This document shows positions 3,458-55,658 of a DNA stretch of 64,000 bases, piece after piece. The first letter of the stretch is position 1; the number at the start of each line of letters is the position of its first letter. The DNA lies in the NCBI GenBank assembly GCA_045837725.1, contig JBEWZL010000064.1, positions 186,001 to 250,000 on the forward strand, written 5' to 3'. The notes under the pieces were generated by a model. The model searched no databases. It was not told the DNA's origin and saw only the letters and a list, made by a program, of their open reading frames with translations. Position numbers and translations under genes: made by a program. This stretch comes from Vermamoeba vermiformis (lineage: Eukaryota).

Positions 3458-5110
3458 TTACAATTTGATGACAGATTTGTTTTGCACCTTATTCGTAGCG
3501 AAGTGTTGCTTTTGCTTCATCTCTTCAGCTTTATAGGCTTCCTTCAAACTCTTCTTGTCTTCACGTCGAACTCTTCGCTCTTGCTTCACCATCTGTTTGC
3601 GTAACTTTTTCGACTCTTTGGACTCGTCTTTCTCGCGTGGCGCACCCAAGTTCTGTTTCGGCGCCTCTTCTTCTTCTTCTTCCGCGGCCTTCTTGCGCAA
3701 CACCCCGACTGGAATACCTTTCTTGGACAGCTTGATGCGATTGGTGGGCTCGTCACTGATTAACACGGGGTGATTCTCGAGATTAGAATATGTGCCTATA
3801 ATTAGCGATATTATTATCGTTGCTATTCGACCAATTCACGTACTAATTATAGATTCGCAGTCAAACTGTGCCTTGGGCTCTTCTTTCAAATACATCTCAG
3901 CCAGTCGCTCTTCAGCCTCTTCAAGACTGTCTTCGTCGTCTTCAATGTACTGCTTGGTAGACTGTGCGACGCGTATCTTGCTCTCAGGTGCGGGCACTAA
4001 CAATTCGTGTGCCGGTCGCTTGCGATCAGCCAAGAACTCATCGAGCACTTGCTCATATACACCAATCTCTACTGTGCCCTGTGCATCAATGTCCTCTTCG
4101 TCTGAGGCCAGATCCATGTCTTTGTCGTACTTGGCCAGTGTCGCTTCGAACATCTCGTCGAGCAGTGTGGGCTCTGCTTTGTTTTGTTGCGATTCTTCTC
4201 GCGGCAATTTGGCAGTGACACGTGTCACAGTGTCAGTGATGTCGTCTTCAATGTCGTCTTCAATCATCTCATCCTCGCCATCGTCACTCATGTCCTCGTC
4301 GCTCAACATCACTGCATTGGCCTTGGCTACAAAATCATCGTCGAGTTCACCGTTCTCTTCGTAGTCCTCCGGGTGTTCGAGTGCATCCAACACTTCGAGG
4401 TCGATACCTCCTGGCAACATCTGATAGAAATACCTTCGCTTTTGTTCTTCGGTCAGTTGATCCAAGAAACTCAGGTCAACGTCTTTGCCCAAGCGGCTAG
4501 GGTCAATTTCCTACACCAAGTAAGTACAAGCGGCATGGTACTATGATTATAGACGTACATTGGGCAGTACTTCTTGCGGGAAGTCCTTCGGCAATCGCTT
4601 CTTCTTTTCTTTCTTTTGTTTGAATTGGTTCATGTCCTCAGGAAATTCAGGCGCTGGAATAAATATACCTCCAGCAGTGCCTAGTGGTCGCAAGTGCTGT
4701 GAATAATCATATCCATCACCTCCAAACACTTCTCCTTCGTCATCAATAACGATCTCTTTCTCTTTTTGTGCAATCCTGCCCAACAGTTAATTAAAATCAA
4801 ACTAATGTAAATTTACGTACTCCTCATCATCAATTTCGTCAATTTCTTCAGATTCCTCCTCTGAATTATTATTCTGAAGGAAATAATTAATTCCGATCGA
4901 AATCCAAATCGCGATCTTACGTTGCGAGTTTCGATATCTTCTTGCGGTTTCAAGACAAACTCACCCGCTTCGCCAGCGTTAATATCGCGGGAACTGCGGT
5001 GAACCAATTGAAAAGTCACCGCTTTTTTTGGATCAATCCATCTCTTCTTGTTTCTCGGCTACGTGAAAGTTTAGTGATTATTATTTTGCAATATAATATA
5101 ATATTACCAT
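3458..5110 (-). CDS. LTV1: LTV1 40S ribosome biogenesis factor
   Basis: M|PRNKKRWIDPKKAVTFQLVHRS, YDYSQHLRP, FDCESIIST|YSNLENHP, KKLRKQMVKQERRVRR. The first coding exon is only ATG (5108-5110). Confidence 0.9.
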
Positions 5111-5142
5111 TGTGTTATTGTGCTTGGTGTCAAAAAGGTTTG

Positions 5143-5216
5143 TTTGCCGCGATCTGCCTGGAGCGGGAACTAGAATTCGGGCCCCGACATTTTTGTTCGG
5201 GGAAAGTTTTGCCGCC
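5143..5216. promoter_or_regulatory. Putative E2F sites in the LTV1/RPA2 bidirectional promoter
   Basis: TTTGCCGC at 5143 and 5208 match TTTSSCGC; GCGGGAA at 5163. They lie upstream of a replication gene. Confidence 0.45.
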
Positions 5217-5276
5217 AAGATTTTGGATGAACGTTTCTTTTTATTCGAATTTTGATTGCACGAGAAGAACACAACG

Positions 5277-52900: not shown

Positions 52901-53176
52901 CGCACTGCTCACTCAATTCAGTACTGACCACTCCATCCTGCAGGCACTGTCAAACCCGTGCGTTACGTGGTGATCGAAGACGACAAGAAGATCCCTCGTC
53001 CTGACTTGCTACAAGTGACTAACACGCTCTGTTACTTGTACCCCAACTGGGCTGACGCCATCAAGTTGCCTTTCCCCACTCAACTCGCGCACAAGTTGGC
53101 GTACCTCATGGGCGAGATCAAGGTTGACGATCCTCGCCTCCACGAGAGCCTCTTCAAGACTTACTGCTACTTGTAA
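49908..53176 (+). CDS. Argonaute/Piwi family protein
   Basis: RGG-rich N-terminus, ANYFKL, PAZ (VYTRYN..YY..DQPLL..HLVPELC), MID (YNSIK..ISQNI..NKFG), PIWI (FIGIDVYH, YRDGV, QKR, GTVVD, AHKLA, YCYL*). Confidence 0.95.
49950..50110 (+). repeat. Coding low-complexity repeats: NNN(Y)SGNN(N)RQGGY x2 followed by RGG repeats
   Basis: Duplicated aac...agcggcaacaac...ggcgg unit and ggtggtcgc repeats. Confidence 0.8.
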
Positions 53177-53487
53177 GTTGATGGCGTGCAGGGCGCTGCA
53201 TAAGCGATGTACATAGCTGTTTTTCTTTTAGTTTTTGAATTCCGGATTCAGCACTCCGACAATTCATTTTTGATTTAAGCATCGAATTATTTATAGATTG
53301 TAGTTTTATATTCATTGTAGTAGATTGATAGAATAAAAGTTTCAGCAACTTATTCTCGGAGATTCGAACACGTGATGGAGCTGCCACGTGTTTTTGCTCA
53401 CCACGAATATTTTGTCGTGTGCAAAAGACTTGTCATTATTTTGAATATTAGACGATAGTAGAAGTCAAAGCATTGTATATTAACAAA

Positions 53488-55658
53488 ATGACTTCACTTA
53501 CAGTCACTCACAACTTCAAATCTGTAAATATTTCTGTAACGCCTAGCACCCCTCTAGCTCAAGTATTGTCTGATTTTTGCAGCAAAAATTCACTCAATCC
53601 CGATGATTGGACATTGACTAGCAAGAATAAAGAGCTGGATCTGTCTTTGACCTTTCGTCTTTCTGGATTAGTTTCAAACTCAAAATTAGAATTAAAACGA
53701 CGACAAGTCAGTGTTGCAGATTGTAAGTATTCATAATTTCTCGTTGAATTAATATTACAAATAAATAATTGAATTTCTGAAATTTTTTCCATCTGCTACT
53801 CAGTCTTTTTTTTGTTAAATTAATTATAATGCGCTCCAAAATACTCACAAAAATATCGTTTAAATAGCACAAGTCACGATCGCTCTACAGCTTCCAGAAG
53901 GAGGTCGAGTTCAAGGCGTTTTCAATCCGCAAACCTCTTTGTGGGCTATTATTAGTCATTACGAACAGAATTTAAAACAAAATTTTACTAAGAATGAAGG
54001 GCCAGTAGAAGGCTCTAAAGATAAGACACCTGTTTACAAACAACCCGTCATCAATTTTACAAACAAAGAAGTACGTACTCAGATCCATTCCACTTTATAC
54101 CTGTATTAACCTTGATTTCTAGATTGCTACTAATAGAGAGTTGCGAACAACGACATTGCAGTCCCTGGGTCTCACTAAAGGCAGTGGTCTGTTGCGATTC
54201 TTCTTCAGACCATCGACCAAATCATTGGCTCAAGTAAGCAGAGCGCCGTCAATCTTGACTCAATTTTATTAATTTTATTCTTTGTAGATTGAAGAGGAAG
54301 AGAAATTGATTGAAGAAGAGACTAAGGTCCGCGAAGAAGAACAAGAACAGGTCAAAAAACAAATCGCTGAAAAAGAACAGGCTGAGCGCGACAAGAAAGC
54401 ACAAGAAGAGCGCGAGAGACAACAACAGACCTTTGCGTAAGTGGCTCTTGTGCGCCAGTAGCAGTTATTTAATACTAACGGGTGCACAGTTATGAAGAGG
54501 AAGAGCGTCGCAAATTACAAGCACGTGAAGCAGAATTGAAAGCCGAAGCTGAACGACGTGCTCAAGCAGAGAAAAAGAGATTGGAACAACTCGATCAACA
54601 CGAGCGCGAGAAGGCTATACAAGAACGTGTCATGTTTGAGAAGTGGAAGGCTGAAAAGGAGCGCAAAGAACTTGACATGCGTGCCAAGCAGCTGAAAGAC
54701 CAAGAGGAGTGGGACGCGTGGGTGCAAGGCAAGACCACCAGCACGAACACGAACACCAACCTGAGCACGAGCAGCGACAAGATGGAGATTGACGAGCCAA
54801 TCAAACAAGTCAAGCCGTTAGAGGACAGACAAATCAAAGTCTTCGCACCAGCCAGCGCACCATTTGATCCTGCCACGAGTAAGTATCAAATATGACACGT
54901 GTCAAACAGTGACCAGTACTAATGACGTGTTATATTAGTTGAATTGCCCGAAGATTTCTACAACGTGACAAAAGAAGATTTGGACCGAGAAATGCGCGCA
55001 CGAAATGAACGACGTCGTCAAGAAGAACAAGACAAATCGCACTTGAAGACACGTGAAATGCGCGAAATGGAACGACTGCAACGACTGAGCAAGTGGAACA
55101 AGACAATGATTCGCATCAGATTCCCTGACCGTGTTGAACTTCAAGCCAATTTCTTGCCCAATGAGTACACGTAAGCTCAGTTGGTTGTGTTAATGTTGTT
55201 GATAACAGCGTTACTAATGCACCCTCAGAAACACTTTAGTTGACTTTGTACGAAGTAATCTGGCAGATCCATCGGTCAATTTCTATTTATGTAAGTGTCG
55301 CGCTGTAACTGATCCATGATTCCTAAATTAATCTATTCCAGATACAAGCCCGCCTATTCAAAGACTGCCTATGAACAAGACGTTCATGCAGCTCAGTTTC
55401 TTGCCCGCAGTGCTCGTGCACTTTGGTCTCGAGCAAGGCAGTCAAGTCTACGGCTCGTTCTTGAAGAAGGACTTGTTGGTTGAAATACAAGAGAAATTGC
55501 CTCCCCCTATCATGCACGTGTCAGCCGTTGAAGTGTCAAGCAGTGTCAACCCCGCGCCTGTCACGCAGACCAACACGAACACCAATCGCAACACAGAAGA
55601 CAAGCCCAAGAAGACAGCGGACAAATCAGTGGTGCCCAAATGGTTCAAAAAACAGTAA
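53488..55658 (+). CDS. ASPSCR1: ASPSCR1/TUG (UBL1 + UBX) p97 cofactor
   Basis: LDLSLTFRLSGLVSNSKLEL, ELPEDFYNVTKED, LKTREMRE, IRIRFPDRVELQANF, C-terminal VPKWFK. Confidence 0.9.

Follow-up and report, generated by a model that had tools for sequence, protein, structure and literature searches.

We analysed a 64-kb stretch of the Vermamoeba vermiformis genome (contig JBEWZL010000064.1 of assembly GCA_045837725.1, positions 186,001 to 250,000), here called the window, in which a 12-bp palindrome, TGACACGTGTCA, recurs inside short introns of unrelated genes. The window holds RasGEF, GH31 glucosidase II-like, NMD3, THADA/Trm732, SPX-EXS, Argonaute and protein kinase genes. Our own exon-chaining gene finder returned 34 genes with 138 introns (80 of 40-59 nt and 103 of ≤100 nt), and two introns added by hand, in a region which the gene finder missed, bring the set of short introns to 105, covering 5.9 kb. 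These introns are around 50 nt long and of the GT-AG type. They begin with GTAAGT or GTACGT and finish with YAG, and their yTrAy word is mostly found 10-17 nt ahead of the 3′ end. Across 103 introns the branch-like words are CTAAT (19), CTGAC (16, the second commonest), TTAAT (15), CTAAC (12) and TTAAC (9), with TTGAC (6), TTGAT (5) and CTGAT (2) rarer and 19 introns having none. The Vermamoeba CDC-19 draft genome has 41.7% G+C and 3.5 introns per gene, according to the available part of its description (PMC7125106).

Occurrence of the palindrome in short introns

Seven exact copies of the palindrome are present in the window, at 4216, 9531, 10060, 32197, 33778, 45100 and 54893, each of them named in the original prediction, whilst 100 dinucleotide-preserving shuffles held a mean of 0.01 copies and none of the 100 reached seven. 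When up to two mismatches are allowed there are 19 sites, against 3.66 ± 1.71 in the shuffles (largest shuffle 8). By compartment, six exact copies lie in the 5.9 kb of short introns, one in 42.3 kb of exons and none in 9.3 kb of intergenic DNA. When Markov models are fitted compartment by compartment, the short introns should hold 0.001 copies (order 1) or 0.021 copies (order 3), against the six found there. As a control we used 80 unrelated metagenome loci (1,139,716 bases; the best 80 loci from a scan for GH31 relatives, bacterial, or eukaryotic with an uninterrupted gene), none of which holds the motif, and the 8-mer halves of the palindrome were 31× rarer in this control than in the window (0.013 vs. 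0.406 per kb). A 19-base extended consensus had no match in a prokaryote genome collection or in viral contigs, and Rfam gave no match at gathering score across the whole window. Only the small sample, a single 64-kb window, favours chance or base composition as the source of the pattern; the shuffles, the Markov models and 1.14 Mb of control DNA without a copy stand against it, its probability is negligible, and within the window chance is already refuted.

With at most one mismatch there are 11 sites, nine in short introns, one exonic and one in other non-coding DNA (35620). Short introns account for 27.3% of the bases outside exons yet hold nine of the ten non-exonic sites (binomial test, P = 6e-5, or P = 2e-4 when intergenic DNA is the sole comparison), and none of the ten is in the 9.3 kb called intergenic or untranslated region (UTR), which bears out, within the window, the enrichment in introns that had been expected. 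TGACACG is the top 7-mer of the 105 intron interiors (splice signals excluded; 12 vs. 0.53 expected), and it and its list-topping 8-mer extensions outrank the branch-point words. The excess of the 8-mer in exons is smaller (9 vs. 1.9 expected) and was rejected as a DNA-level signal, as all seven non-palindromic cases read ACGTGTCA in one sense orientation, over Arg/Val/Ser codons, which makes it a codon effect.

The six intronic exact copies sit in predicted GT-AG introns of four genes, two genes per strand, in agreement with the prediction, which was also right to place the copy at 4216 in an exon (of an LTV-like minus-strand open-reading frame, ORF) and to list variants at 10311, 10402, 10426, 15217, 15999, 33222 and 46526, every one of which is present and intronic. 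In total 13 of the 105 introns, or about one in eight, carry the motif, distributed over six genes (4, 4, 2, 1, 1 and 1; clustering permutation P = 0.006), and ten of the 13 have another motif intron in the same gene. Sites cluster in the genes designated g5, with six sites within ~900 bp, and g14, with five within ~1.75 kb. A preference for internal and 3′ introns had also been described; it exists in modest form (median relative position 0.58 vs. 0.40, P = 0.03). Motif introns have a median length of 54 nt against 53 nt for the others, so the element lies within introns of ordinary length and does not resemble an added insert, and insertion of the palindrome into existing introns was rejected on account of the equal lengths.

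The half-site at branch positions and possible pairing between copies

Sense-strand TGACAC occurs 18 times in short introns, and in nine of these its A lies 10-22 nt from the 3′ splice site; six others are 7-15 nt from the 5′ splice site and three are deeper in longer introns. In six of the 13 motif introns (10288, 10396, 15213, 15993, 32184 and 33771) no yT[AGT]Ay word other than the TGAC of the motif itself is found at 6-30 nt from the 3′ splice site. The variants at branch positions (10288b, 10396b, 15213, 15993, 32039 and 33211, where b marks the branch-proximal site) all keep TGACAC(G), their changes being in the 3′ half. From position and the lack of alternative branch-like words we infer that TGACAC is probably an extended G-type branch site and that the half-site is used as such, which upholds the earlier suggestion that the TGAC half doubles as a branch point. 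With the conserved U2 small nuclear RNA, the CAC after the branch A would extend U2 pairing.

The whole palindrome has a strict architecture. Among arrangements of TGACA only the inverted TGACA-N2-TGTCA form is enriched, with nine sites (seven with a CG centre, two with GG/CC), whilst other spacings and everted or direct arrangements give 0-3 each; a branch word joined directly to its own complement yields exactly this form. Full copies are found in two places, 9-15 nt after the 5′ splice site (exact in introns 9507, 10034, 45085 and 54879, with one mismatch in 10288 and 10396) and at the branch position (32184 and 33771, with variants). These positions mirror each other: a copy is either 9-15 nt away from the 5′ end or has its last base 6-13 nt short of the 3′ end. 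Three introns (10288, 10396 and 54879) hold inverted pairs of copies, 21-33 bp apart, and two to three more have weaker partners. In intron 54879 the exact copy pairs with a decayed inverted one in a stem of 12 bp, four flanking bases included (minimum free energy, MFE, −14.1 kcal/mol, z −2.3), and none of 85 other introns pairs as well. The two copies in 10396 form a mutual hairpin (MFE −14.1 kcal/mol, z −2.1; duplex −18.1 kcal/mol, P = 0.012 against other introns) and those in 10288 a 7-bp stem. The stems in 54879 and 10396 run into intron-specific flanks, and their folds beat shuffles. Each of the six 5′-proximal copies pairs better with the 3′ part of its own intron than with those of 85 motif-free introns (P = 0.15, 0.06, 0.07, 0.012, 0.07 and 0/85; Fisher combined P = 1.7e-4). 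The small RNA hairpin suggested earlier was rejected for the 12-mer alone, which leaves no space for a loop; folds better than those of shuffles are confined to introns holding a second copy. A general pairing rule between intron halves was likewise rejected (own-minus-cross difference in motif-free introns −0.16 kcal/mol, P = 0.42).

Tentatively, and judging from sequence, we read the palindrome as an intronic, RNA-level splicing element, a self-complementary branch-site module in the pre-mRNA, and it may be, though we hold this with equal reserve, that self-pairing is the purpose of the full palindrome. The element would be a G-type branch word, (y)UGACAC(G), fused directly to its own reverse complement, the first half of which would act as the branch site in those introns that place the element 10-22 nt upstream of their 3′ splice site. 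Being loop-less it could not fold on itself, and any two copies might pair over up to 12 bp, which is the weaker part of the proposal. A 5′-proximal copy would then find its partner, a second copy or what is left of one, close to the branch site or the 3′ end of the intron it lies in; alternatively, copies in neighbouring introns of the same pre-mRNA would pair. This pairing would loop the intron or bridge introns such that splice sites are juxtaposed or the branch site is transiently masked. Perfect copies would decay, and selection would preserve nothing but the branch half on the sense strand, in those places where it is used. The boldest form of this proposal, which we regard as very doubtful, is a 'sticky' double branch site that offers a branch word on either strand, pairs with any copy and marks about one in eight introns, a new intron signal; just as doubtfully, such a site would set the order or coupling of splicing or back-splicing, or would be the minimal seed of new short introns in either orientation.

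Several results weigh against an RNA element of this kind. Folding of the whole intron beats shuffles (z < −2) in only two of 12 motif introns, and the mean z is −0.35 in 18 introns with TGACAC/GTGTCA against −0.13 in 74 without (P = 0.35). Pairing between an intron's own halves as compared with cross-halves is borderline (P = 0.054), and no compensatory changes were seen. The four 5′-proximal exact copies are in introns with CTAAC, TTAAC or CTAAT as the branch word, and because this word differs, pairing of these copies with the branch site proper is impossible. Splicing should moreover be hindered when a stem locks up the branch site. Base pairing alone needs no identical 12 letters across unrelated genes, and a self-pairing model does not predict the asymmetric flanks, GTTTGACACGTGTCAYATT, which are common to three to five copies. 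Lone half-sites are sense rather than antisense as a trend only (12 vs. 5, P = 0.14; 7-mers 6 vs. 1, P = 0.125). The variant at 35620, close to the start of a gene, falls in no intron, one exact copy (4216) is in an exon, and three motif introns have no companion in their gene.

Host introns, related lineages and gene models

The introns that host the exact copies are 45, 51, 57, 54 (or 72), 58 and 60 nt long. Two transcript-derived proteins of a sister lineage, P0136 and P0121, come from short, evidently spliced contigs, and five motif introns are verified because the gaps in their alignments fall exactly there (9507-9551, 10034-10084, 10288-10334, 10396-10448 and 15213-15260). P0136 is 90% identical to one window exon and shares a 90%-identity cluster with a EukProt Vermamoeba vermiformis entry, which is 89% identical to that exon. 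Reading through introns 45085-45142 and 54879-54938 hits a stop after five codons, whilst splicing leaves at least 76 open codons to either side. The 57-nt intron 32184-32240 is in frame and stop-free in the window strain, and its call is based on splice signals; it is also supported by two related lineages, whose ORFs P0137 and P0141 part from the exon just past the same end and continue with residues compatible with a GTACGT start. A near-identical ORF of an NCBI strain, P0142, reads through this intron, with the motif kept and one change elsewhere in the intron. For intron 33771-33824 the flanking frames are uncertain, and a relaxed model sets the motif in an intron at 33753-33824.

Orthologous introns of the lineages are still partly alignable. 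We compared the intron-retaining sister-lineage fragments P0149 and P0145 with the window frames by back-translation, which is our own inference: the branch copy of 10396 keeps nine of ten determinable bases and a motif-free stretch of 10034 keeps ten of 14 (first and second codon positions), a comparison which at this lineage distance cannot show constraint. Protein look-ups for ORFs that run into introns gave no record for ten of ten exact ORFs and, in a second set, for two of five. Eleven GH31 relatives read through the position of intron 15213, and several also through the position of a non-motif intron. The closest metagenome GH31 relatives (L001, L005, L010 and L069, at 47-53% identity) have an uninterrupted 2.1-kb coding region, where the window gene has four introns.

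Copies and variants of the palindrome in the window (nt, window coordinates)
Feature	Position	Location	Details
Exact palindrome	4216-4227	Coding exon, minus-strand LTV-like gene	Within TDTVTRVTA; LTV Pfam score 24.9 bits, below the 28-bit cut-off
Exact palindrome	9531-9542	Intron 9507-9551, g5 (minus, DUF7897 family)	9 nt past 5′ splice site
Decayed second copy, GTGCGTCA		Near 3′ end of intron 9507-9551, g5, minus	
Exact palindrome	10060-10071	Intron 10034-10084, g5, minus	13 nt past 5′ splice site; separate branch word CTAAC
One-mismatch palindrome	10311-10322	Intron 10288-10334, minus	5′-proximal in RNA
Half-site	10295-10301	Intron 10288-10334, minus	CTGAC the sole branch-like word, A 11 nt from 3′ splice site
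One-mismatch palindrome	10426-10437	Intron 10396-10448, minus	5′-proximal
One-mismatch palindrome	10402-10413	Intron 10396-10448, minus	Branch position
Two-mismatch variant	15217-15228	Intron 15213-15260, minus, GH31 glucosidase II alpha-like gene	CTGAC the sole branch-like word, A 13 nt from 3′ splice site
Shortened variant, TTGACACGTCA (RNA sense)		Intron 15993-16048, minus, GH31 gene	Half-site 16002-16008 the sole branch-like word; junction visible in P0121 alignment
Variant, TGACACGCCTCA	32040-32051	Predicted intron 32039-32083, minus	Right at 3′ end; uncertain model
Exact palindrome	32197-32208	Intron 32184-32240, g14 (minus, no family)	Branch position; CTGAC the sole branch-like word, A 22 nt from 3′ splice site
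Two-mismatch variant, CTGACACGCGTCTAAC (RNA sense)	33222-33233	Intron 33211-33282, minus	More GACAC repeats
Exact palindrome	33778-33789	Intron 33771 (or 33753)-33824, minus, same gene as g14	Branch position; TTGAC the sole branch-like word
One-mismatch variant, TGACACCTGTCA	35620-35631	Outside short introns	Between the stop of ORF 35712-36695 and the g14/g15 gene start
Exact palindrome	45100-45111	Intron 45085-45142 of a gene (plus) encoding protein kinase and KA1 domains	15 nt past 5′ splice site
10-bp variant, TGACATGTCA	46526-46535	Intron 46500-46589 (90 nt), minus	Central CG missing; CTGACAC upstream
Exact palindrome	54893-54904	Intron 54879-54938, plus, unnamed gene 3′ of Argonaute	14 nt from 5′ splice site
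Decayed inverted copy	~54925-54936	Intron 54879-54938, plus	

The gene models are imperfect, and that of g5 is wrong in two places (9694-9828 and 10858-11083): P0136 reveals a small exon (YGLGHVGT) inside the predicted 135-nt intron at 9694-9828, and also shows ~40 further N-terminal residues in the 10858-11083 region. At 49908-55658 the model fuses an Argonaute gene (PAZ, ArgoL2 and Piwi, to ~53170) with a downstream gene without a Pfam match, and it is to this downstream gene that motif intron 54879 belongs. Similarly, g14 and g15 (31240-35300) are probably one long gene of unknown family with ~15 introns in the relaxed model. A word-index search found no homologues of g14 and HMMER gave one close relative and two weak matches; for g14/g15 only close Vermamoeba-like relatives turned up.

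Other intron features were noted beside the palindrome. Upstream of its motif variant, intron 33211-33282 has a short series of GACACCTT-like repeats (TTGACACCTTCGACACCTTTGA). Two motif-free introns, 62340-62397 and 19775-19820, have strong folds (z −2.25 and −2.72), in which GTAAGTA at the 5′ splice-site region pairs with a TACTTAC-like word near the 3′ end; here too, as in the palindrome, a branch-like word would be the complement of a further splicing signal, which would make this the second such case. Intron interiors are enriched for TACTTA (9 vs. 2.2 expected) and TTACTTA (6 vs. 0.83), and also for GATCTG (7 vs. 1.05), GGATCT and ATCTGA. Neither group was kept as a separate signal since, by eye, TACTTA is context or a variant of the branch site and GATCTG is its upstream context (ATCTGAC/ATCTAAC). 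GTACGT 5′ splice sites occur in 13 introns (e.g. 3796, 20626, 32184, 42077, 45404 and 47747), followed by G in eight of the 13 (by eye); intron 47747 begins GTACGTGTCA, and a splice site of the GTACGT type thus overlaps the right two-thirds of the palindrome. The only everted pair of half-sites in the window, TGTCACGCTGACA, is intergenic, at 9032-9046, upstream of the SPX-EXS gene (6412-8830, minus).

Alternative explanations and known systems

The symmetry of the palindrome can reflect any of three things: double-stranded DNA bound by a dimeric protein, self-complementarity, or a signal which has to read alike on either strand. An RNA element, a DNA site and a decayed introner family are not mutually exclusive in origin and function. 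The last of these finds some support in the relations between copies. The best local alignments among the 105 introns all join motif introns and span 14-29 nt around the motif, the copies at 9531, 33778 and 54893 have 20-26 nt in common, and this flank sharing goes beyond that of random intron anchors (second- and third-ranked pairs, P ~0.002). An oriented consensus, (T)GTTTGACACGTGTCAYATT(G), reads in the sense direction in five introns and is inverted in 54879, such that the extended unit is present in both orientations to transcription, and despite its 2-nt core deletion intron 46500 aligns with 54879 over 29 nt, its flanks matching those of the 54893 copy. The same sequence in introns of unrelated genes on both strands, the mirror-image positions, the inverted pairs in three introns, the series from perfect to decayed and the local clustering in genes would all suit a mobile family, now decayed, of very short elements that form hairpins and either generate introns or travel within them, inserted and spliced in either orientation, with a core that is a branch site readable on either strand and of which only this core and the used branch half survive. 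Among published introner families median lengths go down to 30 nt, and terminal inverted repeats are present in 72 of 177, in the available part of the survey by Gozashti et al. 2022 (PMC9860276). The same part of that survey defines introners as groups of introns with similarity extending near both splice boundaries, which the similarity seen here never reaches. With the motif masked, the 78 pairs of motif introns have a mean best score of 10.4 against 13.5 for 4,186 pairs of other introns, and the motif introns have nothing in common beyond the motif and 4-8 nt, by which whole-intron homology was rejected. Inspection of 19 introns by eye showed no target-site duplications, and motif introns are not longer than others. 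Because there is no excess similarity once masked, length is normal and no duplications were seen, the motif introns are not classical introners, and the footprint of an intron-generating element, suggested beforehand, is not supported in the classical sense. A perfect 12-nt core in seven copies beside unrelated flanks also needs selection on the core, which is to say a function, and the GH31 relatives lack both the motif and the non-motif introns, which leaves that comparison silent on recent gain. We consider a decayed mobile family of this kind rather unlikely as the full explanation. A miniature inverted-repeat transposable element or foldback transposon was rejected, as no duplications were seen and there are no intergenic copies and no longer repeat family around the motif.

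A DNA-level origin would make the palindrome a double-stranded site for a homodimeric factor, either a bZIP/bHLH protein on the ACGT/CACGTG core or a reader of the TGACA half-site, with the clusters as intragenic regulatory modules. The perfect 12-bp dyad with strict 2-bp spacing (nine inverted N2 sites) and non-palindromic flanks is the classical signature of a dimer site, and clustering in few genes (g5 and g14, P = 0.006), pairs 21-33 bp apart in the same intron and the variant at 35620 upstream of a gene that holds four motif introns are all consistent with it; CACGTG is also mildly enriched everywhere, ~1.4-2.1-fold over an order-3 Markov model. Such a site would be expected in promoters or other non-transcribed DNA as well, but in the window nine of the ten non-exonic sites with at most one mismatch are in short introns and none is in the 9.3 kb called intergenic or UTR (P = 6e-5). 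There is no bias to gene 5′ ends (median 0.58), several sites being in the 3′ parts of convergent gene pairs, and occurrence in 13 of 105 introns of unrelated genes is unlike a regulon. A DNA site predicts neither that the half-site is a branch-point word nor its strand-specific decay at branch positions, and the exonic 8-mer excess, with its single sense orientation, fits codon usage. The bHLH/bZIP-like site of the original prediction is therefore disfavoured by the intronic distribution and by the coincidence of half-site and branch word, and we hold a dimer site to be rather unlikely.

If the window is typical, then by our extrapolation the 59.5-Mb Vermamoeba genome (size from the available part of PMC7125106) would hold thousands of copies, and ~12% of its introns would contain this motif, a stronger signal than the canonical branch-point word. 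The proposed splicing element would be a concrete case of a branch site coupled to its own complement, which bears on the definition of very short introns, on intron-intron pairing as a control of splicing in protists and on the origin of new introns, and it could give a practical intron marker for the annotation of amoebozoan genomes. Among the literature matches listed, the exact 12-mer appeared only in Ebola virus work unrelated to introns, the 10-mer and 8-mer cores combined with introns returned nothing relevant, and a query on introners in Amoebozoa returned nothing on the motif, although supplementary tables of the introner survey may list amoebozoan genomes. A query on palindromic motifs, introns and intron gain gave only an unrelated match, and the word 'palindrom' is absent from the available part of PMC7125106. 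In these literature searches no described intron signal was found that accounts for the palindrome.

Set beside known systems, the palindrome has partial likenesses to several. Introners and introner-like elements, reportedly described by Huff et al. in 2016 and van der Burgt et al. in 2012, compare well in that a common sequence occurs in introns of unrelated genes, in both orientations, with some inverted-repeat or hairpin character and a decay series; unlike them, the similarity here is limited to 12-26 nt and stops short of the splice boundaries, in introns of ordinary length and with no target-site duplications seen. The E-box and G-box are palindromic transcription-factor sites with an ACGT/CACGTG core, and the palindrome resembles them in its perfect dyad, CACGTG centre and homotypic clusters, but differs in being intron-restricted, with no intergenic copy in the window, and in having a branch word as its outer half-site. 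A dimer site of TALE-homeodomain proteins (MEIS/TGIF-type), known from high-throughput systematic evolution of ligands by exponential enrichment (HT-SELEX), has the same outer pentamers, inverted around a 2-bp centre, and two window variants in which the centre is changed and the pentamers are intact recall this form; however, the central dinucleotide is CG in seven of the nine sites and the sites are intron-only. The spliceosomal branch-point sequence is yUnAy, or UACUAAC in yeast, and yTGAC fits this consensus; half of the copies have it 10-22 nt from the 3′ splice site, and six introns offer no other candidate. A branch point needs five to seven bases on one strand, whereas the palindrome keeps six more as an exact complement, and full copies are also found 9-15 nt from the 5′ splice site, where branch use is impossible. 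Finally, complementary intronic sequences are known to loop pre-mRNA, as in yeast, where the 5′ splice-site region pairs with that of the branch site, and in the reverse-complementary matches that flank circularised exons. The palindrome differs from these in being only 12 nt long and identical in sequence everywhere, yet like them it places self-complementary copies within one intron (three introns) and in successive introns of the same gene (g5, g14 and GH31).

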